A stretch of DNA of 64,000 nt from Camelus ferus (Eukaryota): the NCBI RefSeq assembly GCF_009834535.1, contig NC_045696.1, positions 33,916,001-33,980,000 of the forward strand. Direction: 5' to 3'. Below, piece after piece: positions 48,481 to 61,175 of this stretch (its first letter is position 1; each line of letters opens with the position of its first letter). The notes beneath the pieces were generated by a model. That model saw only the letters and a program-made list of their open reading frames with translations, had not been told where the DNA came from and made no database searches. A program made the position numbers and the translations under genes.

Positions 48481-51400
48481 AGCATCCTTCTGGTAAAAAA
48501 CCAAGGGTAGACATCCGAGAGAGGTTAGGGGTAAACCACTTGAACAGCCTCCTTTATAAACCAATATCCTGCTCCCACTAATCTCAAAATTGTATTTGAG
48601 ACGCTCCATATCTCCAAAGGCAGCAGCTGTTGTCATAAAAACTGTCCTCACCCATACGTCTGTTCTGACGTGACAAATCACCTTGCTACACTTAACTACA
48701 AATTTAACCCTCTTAATACAAGTTACTTTGCTTGTGGGGTTAGTTGTCATCATCTAGAATAGATTATTCTTAATTTGGCAGAAACTCTATCTTGATACCT
48801 CTTTACACCTCTTTATGCCATACATAGAATAGACCATCACTAAATACGATCGTTGACTGTGTTCTCACAAGGACCTCGTAAAAATTAGTCTCAGGTGGAC
48901 ACTAATCTCACAACTGGGTCTGTATGTGCATCAACAAGATTCCAACAAACTGAATGCTCAGGTCTGTTTAAGAATGATTATCTTAAAGTTGTAATTTAAA
49001 AATAATATTAAATTTTTAATTTTTAAATTGTATGTTTTAGGCTGGTTTATAGCCTAAGTTATACTTCTGACAAATAAAAAAGAAACAAAAAGTGAAGATA
49101 AGCAATTCTCATATTAAACTATGAAAATATGATACAGCACTCCTTCAGAGTCTGAACATTATGTACATTCAGATATTACTTATGATTACTATTGTGTCTA
49201 TCAGTAAGTTCAGGTTTATGCACTTTAGACATTCCTATATTTTCACTGCATCTAAAATATCGAAAATTATTTTCAAAATTATTTTAATTTTTCATCTACT
49301 CTTAGACATCTCTGAACTTCTGAGTCACTTCCCTGCATATAAAGAGAGACACATTTAAGAGGAGACCTTTTAAAAATGATGACACATTTCTAAATACAAT
49401 AGATTAATTATAGCCCAACTATCTTAAAGATTTCCAAACAAATTTATGGTCACAAGTTCAATTAATCACATAATTTTTTTAGTGGCCCCAAATTGTACGA
49501 CCATATAGTGTGACTTGTCATTTTAATTCTTGATGTACGTTTAATACTTTTACTAGACTTTTAACTTCTTTAAAACAAAACCCATCCCTAGTTCATTTTT
49601 AGACCCCTTAACTAGCATTGCATGTTTCATATTGCAGGTGCTCTTTAAATATTTGTTATGTGACTGAATAAAACAATGAAGAGAAGCCCATGTAAATGTA
49701 GCTTGAAATGGGTGTTACTATAAAAGGCCATCTTATTTGTGTAATAATAAGAAATAGAAAGTGTAATGCCACTGTTTTAGTAAATTATTCATACTTAGTA
49801 ATTTACCAAGATCTAACATCCACAGCCTCTTTTAATTTCTACTCATTTGAAATAGAAAGTGAGATAGCTATTAAGGTTTATTTTATTGAAGAATCAAGTC
49901 CATCACTCCTATACTGAAGTTCATTTCTACCTTATATGGCAGTAGCTCTGTGCTCCAGAGTCCTTATTGGATTGAAGAGCAAATCTATACATACGCTGTG
50001 TTGTGCCAGGGGGCACAAATACTGTCTTGATTTACTCATGTGCAACTCCTATTAACACTGTGAGGAATTCAGCGCAAAGCTGAGTATATTTTTCAAGAAG
50101 GATCATGTTGTTACACATCCAAGTAACACACGAACTCTTTTTGACTATAAAACCAATGATGTGCAGCCCTACACACTTAGGGTCCTCATTTAGCTTTTCA
50201 TTGACTAAATGTCCGACTGGTCTGACTCATTCTTTGTGGCAGATATTTTTAAAAGCAAGATTTGACAAACAGAAAAATGAGGCAAATTTCTGGAACTATG
50301 AAAGCATGGAGACAGAAGTCATAGGGAAAATTCCAAATTGTCATGCTGTAACATGGCGAACATGCTAAAACATGGGCAATGTTGCGTACATTATTTAGCT
50401 TGAAAGGGACAGAAATTACCCACATGTTTGAGATAATCTCCTTTGAGTGTTGTCCTTTGTTTTGTCGGGTAGAAGCAGCACTGCCTATTCTGCTCTGAAT
50501 TTGGAGATGTTAAGAGAGGGGGATCCATGTACAGACGCTGAGCCCTGACGAGAGCTGGGAACCAGGAAGGGATGGTACAACGGGAGATCCTTCTCCAGCT
50601 TACCTTTGCCTGAAATCAAACCTCGTATTCCTCTGTGAGTGCATGTGGACCTTACACAGTCCACACTCTTTGCTGTCCTGCCCCCTGAGCACACACAACC
50701 TCCCCAGTCATAGCCACGTGGTAATTGACCAACAGAGCCGACGTCATCGACCAGGAAGTACGAACACACCAAAGGAGTCTTTCCTCACATCCTCTGACTC
50801 AACACCTTATTAGCTGTATGACTTTGAAAAGCCATTTCATTTCTCTCTTAACTGTTTACTTCAAGAAATAAGAGACTTTTCAGACTTTGCCAATGACTCT
50901 GTCCTAAGTTTCTACGTCTCTAAAAACAATTCAGTGCTATATAAGTTGACATGTTATTCACAACTTTGCTTATAAATAGTCAATTTTGTCCTGTAACATT
51001 ATTAAATATAAGGCAGAATATAGTTTGTAATTAATGAAATAGCAAAACAGTTTTATAGTCTGTACAAATTTGAACCTAAATGAAACAGGAAGCAAAAAAG
51101 GGGATATCCACATTACTCTTTAGATTATTTATTGACTTGGAACCAGGCTCTCTAGACATATGCTGTTTATGGGGATGGATAATGTTGGCTGCTTTCAGAT
51201 ATATGAAGACTTGAAACTAAGTGTGTTAAGTCAATAGAAATGTACTAATTATATATCATGTCATTTTGGCATTGAAACATTGAAACATAGGTAATAAAAG
51301 ATGCTACTGCATTATTAAGTTTTGATGAAATATACTTACATTCCAGTAGGAAATGATTGAAGTGTGTGACAAGAAATTCTCTATTCTCTCTGAACCCAAG

Positions 51401-51744
51401 GAGCTTAGGATCAGCTGCTGAGGAGAAGAGACCAACACAAACAAGTCTGTAATGAATCCTCCCAATATAATAAATACCAATGTTAGGCACATATTTCTTA
51501 AAAAAGTCAATTCTACAAATACAATGGAGTCAAGAACAAGAAAAACAGTTTTTTTTTTTTTAATTAAGGAGAAAGAAAAGGGCTAACTGGGGAGTAGGGT
51601 AGGGTGGAGTGTCTGTTAGGGTGAAGGTAACCAGGATCAGAATTGGAAAACATAAATTGAATATTTATATTTTCTCTATTACAGATGACTGAAATTCAAA
51701 GTGAAGAGATTGCTCTTGATAAAACACAAAAAGATGAGAGAGCT

Positions 51745-51990
51745 GGGAACAATACTGTGCATTGCTTGGTATGTGTTGGTGCTACTCTGGATGTTTACAT
51801 GTATTAGTTCATTTAATTCTTTCAACAGCCACATGAAGGTAGTACTGATATTATCTCTATTGTACATGTGATGAAATGAACATGGAGAGGTGCAATGACT
51901 TGCCCCAGGTCTGACAGCTAGAAAGTGGCTGAGTCGGCACAGACCTGGGCAGTCTATGTCCAAAGCCAGCACTCTCAATCATGATGTTGT
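51745..51990 (-). mobile_element. MIR SINE
   Basis: acatgtattagttcatttaattctttcaacagccacatgaaggtagtact..tgacttgccccaggtctgacagctagaaagtggctgag..cctgggcagtct. Confidence 0.85.
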
Positions 51991-53199
51991 ATGCTCTCAA
52001 GGGCCAAAAGAGTAGAAGAGGGTGTCTATTTAAATGATAGCTAAGACACCAAAAGACTGAAAAATGGCAAATACTCTGGATTTCAAAGAGGACACTATGT
52101 TAAAAAATATTCCAGAAAATTCTTTTAAATAGATTATTAAATTATGTTTTATTAATACTCAGAAAAGAAACTGTTAATCATGTGGAGGGAATATTGTTTC
52201 CTCTGGAATGAATGACACCAAACTCAACTCATCTCTTCTATCTTTATAGGTTGCTGGAACAGATAAAGTGTGATATAACATAGGCATACCTTGATCTCAG
52301 CAGAAAATTCTTTCTGCTTTATCAAAAATTACAAAAATCTTCAAAATGGTCCTAAAAAATGAAAGTTAAATAAAATCTTGATGACTTTGTATGAATGGAT
52401 TCATAGACAGCTACCATGGCTCAAAAGTACTTACAAGCGAATCAATATAAAGAAGAATGGATGTCTCTAGTGATGCATGAAAACTTTTGTATTTGGGTTA
52501 AAATTATCCATAGTCAAGTATAGGATGGGGAGAACTGAGTAGGAATTTATATTTTAAAAAAAATACTAAAAGTTTTAATTGGCTAAAAGTTTGATACAAT
52601 TCAAAGGACATGATAGTCAAAAAATTGTAACACAATCGAAGAGAGTACTATCAGAAATTCCGTGTACAGAACAAGGGAGGTAATAGATGGCATCATTCCA
52701 AGATCGCATGTAAACAATTATGTTCCACGTGAGGTGAGCGACACACAATGAAGGGAAATAAGCAGGAGGGAAACCCGGATGGTAAAAATTTGGATATTTA
52801 ATAAATGAATAACAGAAGTTCAGTCTGTAGAACAGATATGTGCGTGTGCGCACATGCACGTGCATGAGTTCACACATGTATGTGGGGTCCAGACGTGAGT
52901 ATTGAGATCATGTTGCTCTCTTTCTGAGAAACAGAATAGCATGCTCTGATTCACATTTTAATGGGACCACTCTGTCTGCTCTATTGAGACAAGAGAGGAG
53001 TGAGGGAAGGATGGAAGCAGGGAAGTAATACAGGTGGTAATGATCCAGAAGATGAAAGTTTCATGGATTGGGATGATTCTGAACTGTGAAATGCTCTATC
53101 TTTTTGGCTTTACCCTATCTTTAAGGGTGAAGCCAGTAAGATTTGATGACACTATCTGTAAGGAATGAAACACCATATACCAAGACATCATTTTAGTCA

Positions 53200-53405
53200 T
53201 AATAAACTTCCCAGATTTAAAGGAAACTTAGAAACCTTCTTATCAAGACTGATTCTTTAAAGGAATTCTTTCTACAACAATCTACTCCTGCTTGACTACT
53301 TCTGTGACAAGGAACTCACTGTGTCACATACCATTCATCACATTTTAGAAAAGCTCTGCTTTTAAAAGCTCTTTTACTTATAGGAGCCTAAGCCTGTTTC
53401 TCTTT
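53200..53405 (-). mobile_element. L3/CR1 fragment
   Basis: aaggaaacttagaaacc..cctgcttgactacttctgtgacaaggaactcactg..agctctgcttttaaaagctctttt. Confidence 0.55.
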
Positions 53406-53417
53406 GATGAGCAAGAG

Positions 53418-54225
53418 TGATAGTGTGAAAATAGGTATCTGGTCTTTATCCTCAGCACGAAGCTCTTAAAGCCCTAGGGAATTCAAGTGATAAGAGCAAT
53501 AAAGGTGTGTGTATTCATAACAAGCTCACAAGTGGGTATTAATGAGGTGACTTTTTGGAAAGCATCTAAGAACAGGCGCTGGTCACCAAGGGAACCAACA
53601 TTAGAGGGTTGGAACTTACAGTCTCCTTCCTCCAAAATCTGGAGAGGGGAGAGGAGCTGAAGACTGAGTTCATTCACCACTGGTCAGTGATTTAATCAAC
53701 CATGCCTATGTAAGGAAGCTTCCATAAAACCCCAAAAGGTTGGGGTTCTGGGAGCTTCCAGGTTGGTGAACCAGAATGCATCCATGTGCCACTGTGCCTG
53801 GGCCCCAAACCCCATGGGGACAGAAGACCCTGCATTCAGGACCTTGCCCGATGTATCTCTTCACCTGGCTGGTGATTCCATATCCTTTACTATCTATTGT
53901 AATAAACTGATAATCTAATGAGTAAACTGGTTTCCTGTGTTCTGTGATAATCCAACAAATGAATCAAACCCAAGGAGCAGGTCATAGGAATCTCTGATTT
54001 ACAGCTGATTGGTCAGAAGCACAGGTAACAACCTGGACTTGTGATTGGCGGGAGCACTTTTGGGGGACTGAGCCACATCAGCCCTGCAGATATGATGCTA
54101 CCTCTGGGTGGAGAGCGTGGGAATCGTCGGAACTGAGCTCAACTGTAAGACACCCAGCTGGTGTTGGAGAACTGCTTGGTGTGGGAAAAATATCCTACAT
54201 GTCGGAATTGGTGTCAGAGAGTGAC
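53418..54225 (+). mobile_element. MER21-family endogenous retroviral solo LTR
   Basis: tggtctttatcc..agctcttaaagccctagg..ttagagggttggaactt..ggagaggggagaggagctgaagactgag..tttaatcaaccatgcctatgtaa..aataaac..ggtcagaagcacaggtaacaacctggacttgtgattggc..gacacccagctggtgttggaga. Confidence 0.85.
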
Positions 54226-56434
54226 AGGTGAATGAGAAAAAAAGTAAAACCTGGGAGAAAGGTGCGTAAGAGAAAAGGGGAGGGGAACTGTATTTGTTTC
54301 TTCATTGGCATCTCCCAGCACATAACATGTCATGTGCCATTAGGTATGTAATAAATATTTTTCTGTCTGAGCAATTTGTATTGGGTCACAATAATGTGAC
54401 CATAGGATATTAGTTTATTTCTTAATGAGGTTTAAAAATAATAAAATTTAAATGTTTTCTCTATCCACACACACACACATACATATGCTTATATATGTGT
54501 CTTGTTGACTCAGTAGGTTTGTATGTGTTGATGGTTTTAAACAAGTGAAAAATACCACTGCATTCTAACTGATGGTTCCTTGGTGTCCTAAATCTCAGTT
54601 AAGTTTAAGGGTACATGCCCTTCAATAAGGAGTGACAGACAAAATATATACCAGTACAGTTTGACCAACTAACTCATCAGAATGGATGCCAGTCTGCCTG
54701 GTGCCTATCAGCTGAATATCAGCCTGCTTCAAACTAGGAGAGAATTAAGCTATTTGAGTGCTGAGTTTAAATACTACATATTTCTATTTTGTCTTTATTG
54801 TTAATGAACAAGCCCTATCTTTAGCTCCTGCTGTGCACTTTTGGAGGGTCTTCCATATGGTTGCTGCTAAGTATTTTGGCATTTTCCCAACTGTTTCAAT
54901 TGGGTCAGTGGGGGGGACTGTGTAGGAGTAATAAAACAAGGGTGACTGCAGCAGGGAGGAGTATGATTACTAGACACATAACAGCTTACTGCCTCTCAGG
55001 CATGAAAGCACAGCTCAGTGCCATCCATTACAACAGGCAGTCAGGGCAAACCGCCTTTTTGCCATAGAGTTTACTCCAGGAAAGGCCAGGCCTTGGGTGC
55101 AGAGATGAAATCTCCTGCTTCCAGTTGTTTTTTTTTTTTTTTTTTTCCTGTTTCCTTCCTTCTTCACCTTCCCACAATATCTCAAATGACTCGACAAGGA
55201 GTTAGACAGTTATATCTTGCACGCTACGTCATTCTGAGAAAGTTTTCATGAGTGGACTCAGCTAAATTTTAGCAGCAACAGCAGGGTATCAGTGGCCCTG
55301 AGGGCTTTGATCTTAGGAGAGGGGAAAATGGGGAGGGGAAGTCTGACTACCACAAATACTTGAAAATCCCTGAGACATGATTCACAAAGCCAGAGGTGAC
55401 TGATAATACTGATACTATTATTGAAGTGTCTTCCTGTTAGAAATAAAATCTATGGAAAAAAGGTACTATTGTTTTCATCCTATGGAAGGCAGTGTTGCTT
55501 AAACACTAATAGATTGGGAGGGAAAAAGTCCAAAGCAAAATTAAGATTCTAAACAGCAAAATGATATATTAAAGAGATGTGTACACACACACAGAGACAA
55601 ACACACAAAATGAACGATGTATTCAAGGTCTTGATCCAAAGAGAGTATTTCCCATATTTATGCTTATACACACAAGGATTGTTTAAATAATTCTTTATGC
55701 TTTTCCTTTCACATAATATGGCGCTTTTTCTCCACACTGAACACCAATATACAGCTATGTAGCATTCTAATAGGTTCACAGTGTAGTCAGTAATTTTTCT
55801 TGAGCAAGAAATCGAGATGTTAAAGAAATAGTTGGAGACATTTAAACCGGTAAACAAATATGTATACGGATTTCTTTTTTTCACGTTTCCAGTCAGGAAC
55901 ATTGAACAAAAATGTTGCATTAAAAAAGTTGCTCCACATTTCCTTCCTCCCCTGCCACCCCCAAGCCTAGACACGGGATCCCTGGAGACCCACACCCACC
56001 CGCAGTGAACGCCCCGGGTCTGGCAGGAGGCTGCGCGGGGGAACGAGGCAGGGCGGAAAAGAGCGTGAACTTCCTAGACAAACACCACTGGGCCCGGACC
56101 TCAGCATCACCACCAGCCCCTGCACTTAGGAAAGCACTACTACCGACAGCAGAGGGATGGTCGTAAATCAACTGGTTCCAGGAGGACCCACACTTGTCCT
56201 AGGACTCCAGGGAACCCTACTTCCAGCTCCCTCAGGGCAAGGAGAAAGCTAGGTAAGACTCATATCTGTCAGCACGCAGCACGGAATCCACACCTAGAAG
56301 CCCCTGACACCACCCGCGCGGTCTCCACACCGCAACCGCCGCAACTGCGGGACTCACCGCGCCGCGACCCCACGAGCGGGAGGAGCTGGCAGCCGCTGAA
56401 GTGAGGGCAGCGGCAGCGGCTTCGAGCGCCGCAG

Positions 56435-56446
56435 TGCGCAGGCGCG
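56435..56446 (+). promoter_or_regulatory. NRF1-like site at the probable TSS region
   Basis: TGCGCAGGCGCG versus the NRF1 consensus YGCGCAYGCGCR; followed by further GCGCA half-sites. Confidence 0.65.
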
Positions 56447-56454
56447 CGCGCAGA

Positions 56455-56712
56455 CCGCGCAGACGCCGCCTAGAAGTGACTTCTCCAAAAAGTGTCTTAG
56501 TTCGCGGTCACCTGAGCTCCAGGCAACTCGGCAGCGGCAGGCTTCGTGGATATCCGCCCTCCGCAGGTCCTGCCTGGAGACCTCGCCCTCTCCTCTGGCC
56601 CATCCGCTCCGCCATCCCGAACCCTCCCGGGGTCCTGTCCTTTCCCTCCTGTTCTTTCCCAGTCGCGGGCCGGACCGGGCCGAGCCGGGCAGCCCGGGCG
56701 CGGTCCCTGACC
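56455..56712 (+). other. CHMP2B: CHMP2B exon 1 5'UTR (TSS approximate)
   Basis: cctagaagtgacttctccaaaaagtg..ggtcacctgagctcc..gggccggaccgggccgagccggg resembles my recall of the human CHMP2B 5'UTR. Confidence 0.75.
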
Positions 56713-56746
56713 ATGGCGTCCCTCTTCAAGAAGAAAACCGTGGATG
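56713..56746 (+). CDS. CHMP2B: Charged multivesicular body protein 2B (ESCRT-III), coding part of exon 1
   Basis: Strong Kozak ACCATGG; ATG GCG TCC CTC TTC AAG AAG AAA ACC GTG GAT G = MASLFKKKTVD, the CHMP2B N-terminus; phase-1 donor G|GTGAGT at 56746/56747. Confidence 0.97.
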
Positions 56747-56837
56747 GTGAGTTCCAGGCCGGGCCGAAGAGGCCTAGCTCTGCGTTTCTCCGGTGTATTT
56801 TGGGGGCTTCCGGCCGCGATTCTTGTAGCTATCCCTG

Positions 56838-56847
56838 GGGGCGGGGC
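56838..56847 (+). promoter_or_regulatory. GC box (SP/KLF) in proximal intron 1
   Basis: GGGGCGGGGC exact consensus; TGCGTCAC CRE/AP-1-like half-site at 56881-56888. Confidence 0.55.
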
Positions 56848-59494
56848 CGGATCAAGTGGCCCCACAGGTGACCGCCCTCGTGCGTCACTTTTCTGCTTCC
56901 TTATCTCTTCTGACTCGCCCCACCTCAACCTCACCTGGGCATTCTTCTTCTCTCTGATAACATAACCTTTAAATCCTCCCGGCCCCCACCTCCGGTTTCT
57001 CCTTCAGCGGGATCCTGAGCATTTCATGAAGGGAGGATGCGGCTGGACCTTGGGGGGTCCTTAGACTTGGGGATGTGATGAATTTCTTCTTGATCTCATC
57101 TGCTTGTCAGTTGGGAGCTGTACTGCTACTTCTGGGCACCAAACCGGAAACCTGTATTGAGGTGGGGGAGGGTGTAATAGGCTCCAGTTGCAAATTGAAC
57201 TTGAGTCTGGGTTAGTCTTGTGCTAAGAACATCCCATCAATGGAGATGTGATACAAATGCTTCTTGACTGACTCCAGTAGAAAAATAGAAACCCAGGGAA
57301 AGTGCCTGGATTTTAGTTTTCGTACTAGATTTTTCTCTCTTATGATTATCTTTTGCTGTCTAAAGTAAGAGATGTTGTATGTATTGTCCGCATAGAAGTT
57401 TATTTACATTTTAAGATACTTGCATTGCTTCAGACATTTAGCTCAGTGTCATGTTAAGGGGAAAAAAGTGAATATACAGGGACATACAAATTGATGTTTA
57501 TAAGCAGTGCCTGTTATTATATGATTATATAACTGTTTAATTAGTCCTGATATTTTTTTTTTGACTCTACCAGGAATCAGATTCATTCAAGTTACTTAAA
57601 ATTTGTGTTTCCCATTACATGTTGATTCTAGGTTGCTGCTGGTTCAACCAAAGAATCACTTCTTTGTAAGGGTCTAACTCTGCCACAAAAGGAGCAGTGG
57701 TAGCTAGACAGTGATTGGTACAAACAGGGAGCTCAGTCCAGACCTGGGGTAACTCCTTCATTCTTTTGTATTGATTATTCCAATGCCAGCAAATTATTTT
57801 GTGGAGGATTACAAAGATGTCATCTTCACCCTGCCACTCTACCCTTCACTTCAACACATAATGTCATTTTACCTCTAATCTATCCCAGAGCATAATACAT
57901 TTTTGCTTACCCTTAGTGGGTGAAATGGACTTTTTATTAACTGAGAAATACCATTTACAATACCTGAAATAACTACCAAGTTGGTATCGGAAGTAATACA
58001 ATTATGTGAAATTGGTTTTATATGTGTTTTACCTGAAAATGCTGTTTAATCTTTAACATGGCACTTTATTTTTTTCAGTGTTTCAGTACCAATATTGTAA
58101 TGTTCAGTTATTGTATAGTACTTCAAGGGAAAGAAAAAGATTTATTTTTTTGTTTCAGTTTCATAGAGTGAGAATTTACTAAACAGAGAAATGGGGCTGC
58201 ATCTTTCTTACTGTGATGCTACAAATTAAATTTTTTTAAATTAACATTAAAAGCCAAACATCGCAGTTTTAATTGCTTGATATCTGTCAGATATTTTCAC
58301 AGACATAAATATCAGTTCTGTATTCTCATTGCTGTGCTTCCTGGTGCTTTCAGCAATCTAGTGACTATTGCACTTGAAGTATAGAGCAGAATTAAAAAAA
58401 AAAAACAATGAGGATGTGCAGTGAGGGTATTTAACTGTATACTTATTTGCAGTTGGGTTAATTCATCCATGGAACAATGCTTTTGTTAAATAGACTTATT
58501 TGTGAAAAAAAGGTCTTAAGGCCTTTTGGGAGAACTACTGACTTAAAGATCTGTGTATGAAATTTCTGATTTCTGAAATTTCGCCACTGTTTACATTTAC
58601 TATAACTACTAAACTGCATACTTGATGTTTTCTTAAATTATCCTGTCAATTCAGATCATTTAATGATGTCTTAATTATAGATCTGTACTTTCATTATTTT
58701 GACATAGAGCTTTGTTGATGTTTTTATTTTTTGTTTTATTAAAAAGAAGGTGTTCTGTTTTGTTTAATAGGTGACAGCATTCTTCTTAGTAATGATGGGG
58801 CTATCTATTATGAAATTAAATGTATTTTTAAGCATTTCCCCCAATCATGAGACTCATTGATTATTGATCATAAGACCTTTTACTGTATGCTGTCTTTTTA
58901 TCTGTTTCAGCTGTAATGAAATTCTGATATATAAGGAAAATATGTAACTGCTTATAGAGCTGGAGAATAATTGAATCTTTTTGTCTCTTTGAATTGGCTG
59001 GAAGAGTTGCACACTATATCATTAAAGAATACTGCACATGTAAATTAAAAAGGGAGGCAACAGTACAGCACTTATTACTATTCAGAGTTATGTTTAATTC
59101 ATTTTTGACACAAAGATGAACAAGTCTCTGCAGTGTGTACTTTGTTACAGAAATTAATGAGAATTGTACCTTAATGCCATAGAAGAGGAAGATTCTTTTG
59201 AATTTGAAATTACAATTCAGACCTTGATTTTCCTTTTACTGATTTATAAAGTATATACATATACAGGGCAGTGTGTTTATCTACAGTGTTGTATTTTGTT
59301 TTTGTTTTTTGTTTGTTTGGTTTGGTTTTTTTTCCAAAGTAGACTAATGGTGACCTATTTATTGAAGCTAATCATGAACCTGTAAATCAGGATGCCGTGA
59401 GGACTTGTCATGAATGCATGACTAAATATATTTCTTAAAAACTGAAGTTCTTTAAGCACTATATAATTCATGTCTGTGATCTTCAATAAAGACA

Positions 59495-59655
59495 AACTTG
59501 AGCCAGCATTGTGTTAGCATTTGGTATCAGCATCTTAATTCTTACAAAACCTGTAAGTACTAGTGTTATCCTCACTACATAGGTGAGGAAGTTGAGAGGC
59601 AAAAGGCTAAGTAACTTGCCCAGGATCACACAGCTGCTAAGTGGCAGAGCCAGAA
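59495..59655 (-). mobile_element. MIR SINE
   Basis: ataggtgaggaagttgagaggc..ggctaagtaacttgcccaggatcacacagctgctaagtggcagagccagaa. Confidence 0.85.
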
Positions 59656-59899
59656 CAGCATCCCTTTGAGTATTATAATAGTTATTTTTTTCTCATTTGG
59701 GATCTTATGGCAGTTTAATTTTGCTGTTCTTGCTAAGTACATGAAGTTCTCAGCGTTTGATAGGTACCATGTGATGCTTACTTTTGCCTGTGAACCAGAC
59801 TCTCTTCTCTCATAATTAGTGGTAGAACTTTAATTTCTAATGGTGGTAGAACTAGAAACAACCCTCCTCATCCTGACTCTCCCTTACTCCAACGTTTTC

Positions 59900-61175
59900 C
59901 TAGGCAGTATTGCCCAATCTCTTTTTGCACTTCATCTAAACCTCTTGAAGGGGTAGTGCTGTCTCCTGCCTCCACTTCATTACTTCTCTGACACCTCCCA
60001 TCCTACAGCAGTTTGCTTTACATCTCATGTCATGAAATCTTGCTACTATCATCAGTGACTTCTACATCACCAAATCCAATGGTAATTTTTTAGTAGTCAT
60101 CTCTTGAGCTTATGTTTTGCATTTGATCTTGATAATAATTTCTTCCTTGAAATTCTCTTTCAGCTTGCATTACATAACACTGATTTACTTTTCCTCAAAT
60201 TCCTCTGACTATTCTTTTTCCTTTTGGGCTTTTCTTTTCTTTTTTGCTTTCTTTCTTCCTTCCCCCCTCCTTCCTTTCCTTCTTTCTTTCTTACTTTCTT
60301 CTTTTAACCAACCCTTTAAGTGTTAGTGTTTTTCTTGGTTCCATCTTGGGCTACAACTATTCTAACTGTACATCCTCTCTGTACATGGTCTTATCTTAAC
60401 CCTTATTATTTTAGTTATAACTTAAGTGTTGATGGATCCCAACTGTGTCTCTATATATATTTTTCTGAGTTTCAGACCAGTATATCCAACAGTTTGATGA
60501 ATATCTCCACCTAGATGCACAAGAGTACCTCAAATTAAAACAGATCCCAAACAGAGTTCATCACCATCTCCTTCAAGTCAGTTCCTTCCCTGAGCTCTCC
60601 TCCTGCAGTGTTTGACAGTTCTCAGTTTTGCCCTCTGTGTTCCATTGAGTACCAAGTCCTGTTCCTTTTGCCTATTAAATATTTGGCACATATGATCTTC
60701 CACTGTGTGCCTTCACCTCCTTGCTCTAATTCAGATCCCATTTATCTTGCTCATTACTGCATCACCTTTCTGCTTTTCTTTCCTGTAGCTTCATAGCCCT
60801 TGAATCTAGAGTTGCCTGTGTGATTGATAGACCCAAAATCCAAATCTTACTATACTGCTCCCCAGTGTAAACCCCTTTTTTGAGTCTCTAGCACCAGCAG
60901 GATCAAGTGAGTCCTCTTTAATAAGGCATGCATGGCCCTTCTGAATCTGGCCCTTGTCTTTCTAAAAAGAAAGCCATGTCCCTGGACAGCAACACTGTTC
61001 TCATATTCATCTCTATGTACCATATTCTTTCTCACTCTGATATATTTTTGCTTATGATGCATGGAATTTTTTTCTTCCTCTAGCTAACCTGAACTGTCTC
61101 AGCTCTTTTCCTTCTCTAGAAATTCTCCTTTGATGCCACCTCAAACTATGTTAAATACCTCACTCTTTGTGTCCT
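59900..61175 (+). mobile_element. Degraded L2 LINE
   Basis: catcagtgacttctacatcaccaaatccaatggt..tttcagaccagtatatccaacag..atctccacctagatg..cctcaaatt..aaggcatgcatggcccttctgaatctggccc. Confidence 0.75.

Follow-up and report, generated by a model that had tools for sequence, protein, structure and literature searches.

Does the DNA upstream of CHMP2B in Camelus ferus preserve the state in which this locus stood before the hairpin of the human microRNA gene MIR4795 came into being? The question was raised by a first-pass annotation of the window analysed here, a stretch of 64,000 nucleotides of C. ferus DNA in which all positions are counted unless another sequence is named. It described a stretch with the likeness of one arm of the human hairpin, and proposed that the other arm arose later, in one step, through an inverted duplication. 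We have considered in turn the stretch itself, the gene beside it, its likeness to the human microRNA, the second arm and fold that a microRNA precursor would require, and the published account of how the human hairpin originated.

The 53 bases quoted in that annotation were found by direct reading at 55378-55430, with TTCC as the next bases, and the two halves of a small stem noted within them are located at 55411-55416 (GATACT) and 55425-55430 (AGTGTC). The surrounding DNA is rich in A+T, and the sequence downstream, at 56000-57000, has a G+C content of 0.63. A search of the whole 2.09-Gb genome for copies of the 201 bases around the site returned one candidate, which is the stretch itself, and this excludes a dispersed repeat as the explanation. 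Ordinary non-coding DNA present in a single copy, the stretch 55378-55434 lies about 1.1-1.3 kb upstream of CHMP2B. Collections of metagenome and prokaryote-genome contigs were also scanned for stray mammalian DNA, and these scans gave 0 loci with the arm pattern and 0 loci with an unchanged CHMP2B exon 1 stretch.

Two other features were noted in the neighborhood of this site. A run of about 20 T residues on the + strand (55126-55147), roughly 230 bases upstream of 55378, is possibly the tail of an ancient retroposed element lying on the opposite strand. A short, imperfect, CA-rich stretch resembling a microsatellite lies at 55580-55612 and gave a chance match to the Rfam family AniS (E 0.71).

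On the evidence of its translated exons the downstream gene is CHMP2B. The coding part of exon 1, read from its open reading frame at 56713-56746 (+ strand), encodes MASLFKKKTVD plus one base and is followed by a GT donor; it lies in the promoter region of the gene, which by base composition is the G+C-rich segment at 56000-57000 (0.63). Reading the genome downstream of the window placed exon 2, DVIKEQNRELRGTQRAIIRDRAALEKQEKQL, at L002:5912-6004 (G000:C1:33985912-33986004, + strand), exon 3, of 66 residues, at L004:625-822 (G000:C1:33990625-33990822, + strand), and a further exon of the Snf7 family at G000:C1:33993719-33993823 (+ strand). The Snf7-family exons are in the correct order on the + strand; exon 3 matches the family with an E value of 2.8e-11 and the further exon with 0.006, and for exon 2 Pfam returned no more than a weak Snf7 match (E 0.076). 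It is the protein matches of exon 3 that settle the name, with 100% identity over its 66 residues to proteins called charged multivesicular body protein 2b by their sources. One of these is a cluster representative of 213 residues, standing for 258 member sequences, the N-terminus of which matches exon 1 and, over the 31 residues of exon 2, agrees at 30; the single difference is ...RAIIRDR... in this genome against ...RAISRDR... in the representative. Searches with small pieces of CHMP2B produced no usable match in the ESM Atlas and only chance matches among PDB sequences, and no paper was matched by the CHMP2B peptide strings in a literature search. Intron 1 is about 13 kb long, as judged by the distance from 56713 of the window to L002:5912, and the window therefore contains exon 1 only.

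With the gene identified through exons 1 to 3, the stretch does lie upstream of CHMP2B, as the first-pass annotation had it, and 1,283 bases separate 55430 from the start codon at 56713. The corresponding gap between human MIR4795 and the CHMP2B start we take to be about 1 kb.

The human gene hsa-mir-4795 is listed at chr3:87226189-87226277, on the minus strand and intergenic (PMC10710096, Dataset S1), and MIR4795, CHMP2B and POU1F1 are given as neighbors in the human genome by two papers. The minus strand in the former listing and these neighbor lists agree with the earlier statement that MIR4795 adjoins CHMP2B on the opposite strand. For the mature human sequences we relied on printed tables: miR-4795-3p was taken from the specific ends of two stem-loop primers in Table 1 of PMC12219827, which correspond to the first 11 bases of the miRNA and to the complement of its last 11, and the 21-nt miR-4795-5p is printed in Table I of PMC4626193. 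Compared by hand, the reverse complement of miR-4795-3p as given by these primer ends matches 55388-55409 without gaps at 17 of 22 positions. From this alignment it follows that the look-alike lies on the minus strand, opposite CHMP2B, as in human.

Given the base composition of the window, the probability of at least 17 matches in 22 is 1.1-1.2e-6 per position. Chance matches of this quality are thus expected 0.0023-0.0025 times in 2 kb of one strand and 0.15-0.16 times when both strands of the entire window are counted, and because of this latter expectation the similarity is convincing only when taken together with its location; the match is significant at the expected place and is not so window-wide. 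Over the longer stretch an identity of 42 of 53 positions had been reported. We reproduced this count from the string used in the first-pass annotation, and the part that could be compared with print consists of the same 22 positions, with their 17 matches. The other aligned positions, 31 of the 53, depend on the MIR4795 precursor as written in that annotation, and would count towards the identity if that string is right. Sequence, the 17/22 identity and the adjoining CHMP2B together point to 55378-55430 (minus strand) as the single-copy, non-coding counterpart of the 3p arm and loop side of MIR4795.

The site at which the human second (5p) arm would stand is 55430/55431, and here the sequence runs directly into TTCC. 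This exact point of insertion is a putative one, taken likewise from the precursor as written in the first-pass annotation. The claim that the second arm is absent was upheld: in 55250-55600 only two inverted pairs were found, of 8 and 9 nt, neither of which pairs the whole arm, and the best reverse-complement match to 55385-55412 within about 500 bases on each side reaches 16 of 28 positions, a value also reached by 58 of 300 shuffled sequences. One perfect 8-nt inverted pair, GTATCAGT at 55286-55293 and ACTGATAC at 55408-55415, has its arms 114 nt apart and is of a length in the chance range; one of its arms falls within the miRNA-arm look-alike.

Nor does this genome's version of the locus fold into a hairpin, both strands of 55360-55460 being at the level of shuffled sequence. 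The minus strand has a folding energy of -15.7 kcal/mol (z -0.37), with 72 of 200 shuffles folding as well or better, and the plus strand one of -13.3 kcal/mol (z +0.11), with 97 of 200 shuffles doing so. The six 90-nt windows across the site have energies between -8.8 and -12.5 kcal/mol; for the 184 such windows of 55000-56000 on both strands the mean is -13.5 kcal/mol, and none of the eight best-folding 90-nt windows of that kilobase is a single hairpin. A miRNA precursor would be expected to form a stem-loop of roughly 60-90 nt in which a long stem is paired, and no such structure is found at the site. A search of 54800-56000 against Rfam at E values up to 10 returned no miRNA family, although Rfam may not include a mir-4795 model; the seven matches obtained belong to unrelated families, have E values of at least 0.45 and all fall below the gathering scores.

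Likeness to the mature products of miR-4795 is confined to one arm, which agrees with 3p at 17 of 22 positions by the hand comparison above, and the place of 5p is empty. The counterpart position has the template arm but lacks the inverted copy, which is the arrangement that characterizes a locus before a template switch. The locus shares with hsa-mir-4795 (miRBase MI0017442) its neighbor CHMP2B, its strand relation to that gene and one similar arm, checked at 17 of 22 positions; unlike hsa-mir-4795, it lacks a second arm, forms no hairpin and gives no fold signal, and it is in all likelihood not a miRNA gene.

These observations bear on a first alternative, according to which the stretch serves some function independent of any miRNA, for example as part of an upstream regulatory element of CHMP2B or of an upstream antisense transcript. 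Its position within 1.3 kb of the G+C-rich promoter would suit such a role; however, the absence of a fold signal and of an Rfam family argues against it, as does an identity with human of about 77% over the 22 bases checked in print, which in our view falls within what unconstrained DNA would show. Of the alternatives weighed here this is the least improbable, and even so we consider it very unlikely.

The proposal that the human hairpin was produced by a template switch is borne out by print. Mönttinen, Frilander and Löytynoja (PNAS 2023; PMC10710096) reconstructed every human miRBase locus in a comparison of mammals and explained 111 of these loci by template-switch mutations (TSMs). Row 103 of their Dataset S1 lists hsa-mir-4795 as generated by a template switch, with a TSM length of 33, in an intergenic location; the same row marks a SINE/MIR within 1,000 bp as 'older' and gives an expression quality of 0.198 and 275 CLIP targets. 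The 62 genomes of that study include those of Vicugna pacos and Camelus ferus. The evolutionary age of MIR4795 is given as 'Primate' in Table S1 of PMC9522702, and the portions available of the miRNA-age supplements of PMC5579935 and PMC4848552 contain no 4795 entry. As for function, a miR-4795-5p mimic is reported not to repress a Prox1 reporter (PMC4304626).

The template-switch origin of hsa-mir-4795 is thus already published, and the arm-less state described here is the ordinary one for this species. Within the class of template-switch-born primate miRNAs defined in PMC10710096, hsa-mir-4795 is a member, and the window illustrates the 'parent' state of the model. It does not differ in kind from the loci of that study, being a non-primate sequence like the outgroups used there.

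The printed human sequences carry a further indication of age. When miR-4795-5p and miR-4795-3p, as printed in PMC4626193 and PMC12219827, are paired by hand, they are perfectly complementary over their 18-nt overlap, and the arm shared between human and this genome differs at 5 of the 22 positions that could be compared. A hairpin dating back to the divergence of the two lineages and free of constraint should carry mismatches, so the perfect pairing of the human arms would indicate a young copy. The TSM length of 33 would be compatible with an insert of about 25 bases plus a few bases that already matched, an arithmetic that uses the loop as written in the first-pass annotation.

A finer part of the earlier proposal was not supported. 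The switch had been thought to be seeded on the short inverted repeat at the end of the stretch, the tiny stem GATACT / AGTGTC (55411-55430, + strand), which has an 8-nt loop and which as DNA is complementary at five of its six positions. Stems of 6 bp, with G-U pairs allowed and loops of 3-12 nt, start at 394 of the 9,971 positions in 50000-60000. Since a stem of this kind is at chance level, and since there is no indication of its presence in the primate ancestor, the claim of a seed is unsupported, and we have rejected the 6-bp stem in that capacity. The interpretation offered in the first-pass annotation is accordingly supported in part, in that the template-switch origin is backed by the literature and the detail of the seed is not supported.

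Taken together, the data make it highly probable that 55378-55434 is the counterpart of MIR4795 in its pre-switch state and that the human hairpin was created later by a template switch in the primate lineage. The stretch would correspond to the 3p arm and loop of human MIR4795, the older half of that gene, read on the minus strand. In the primate lineage, replication would have left its template just past the position equivalent to 55430, copied the existing arm as its reverse complement immediately after the loop, and then returned to the template, so that a perfect inverted repeat would have been made in a single event. The C. ferus genome, having neither the second arm nor the hairpin, would make no miRNA from this site; where no switch took place in the lineage, nothing would be processed into one. 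The sequence, its place beside CHMP2B, the similarity of one arm and the absence of the other arm and of a fold come from the present analysis, and the switch and its primate age come from print.

We infer that the arm-less state is ancestral in this genome and not the result of a secondary loss, and this choice between gain and loss relies on the tables of two papers (PMC10710096 and PMC9522702). The opposite course of events would have a two-armed hairpin in the ancestor of placental mammals, from which this lineage lost one arm through a deletion of about 25 bases. Palindromes are prone to deletion, and in that general respect such a loss would be plausible. It is nevertheless at odds with the published age of 'Primate', with the reconstruction from 62 mammals, in which a 33-base template switch accounts for the locus, and with the pairing of the human arms at 18 of 18 positions beside five differences in 22 in the shared arm, when an old and unselected hairpin would be expected to decay. 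We regard a loss as having only a slender chance of being correct, and gain of the second arm in primates remains our reading of the locus. Least credible of all, by a small margin, is that the similarity is due to chance or to a shared old repeat and that the stretch is no counterpart of MIR4795: the 0.15-0.16 matches of 17/22 expected window-wide and the SINE/MIR lying no more than 1,000 bp from the human gene (PMC10710096, Dataset S1) speak for it, but both the strand of the match and its distance from CHMP2B exon 1 are those expected, and at that place only 0.0023-0.0025 chance matches would occur; moreover, no further copy of the 201-base stretch exists in the 2.09-Gb genome, and the identity extends to 42 of 53 positions if the precursor string of the first-pass annotation is right.

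We suggest tentatively, and with more doubt than belief, that an upstream antisense transcript from the CHMP2B promoter may already cross the arm-less stretch in this species. Five RNA runs contain 0.19-0.49 of the sampled words of 55000-56000, proportions that we do not count as evidence of expression. If such a transcript does cross the stretch, transcription would predate the hairpin, and a single template switch would have sufficed to yield an expressed miRNA.

The case has already been catalogued, and the locus, which adds a further outgroup sequence to it, carries little weight alone. What the window provides is the expected arm-less state, which in this genome is present, single-copy and unfolded. 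Were the stretch already transcribed as suggested, the locus would offer a natural 'before' state in a bench test of the claim that a single switch suffices for an expressed miRNA, and as a clean 'before' sequence it could serve to test whether one inverted copy is sufficient for processing by Drosha and Dicer.
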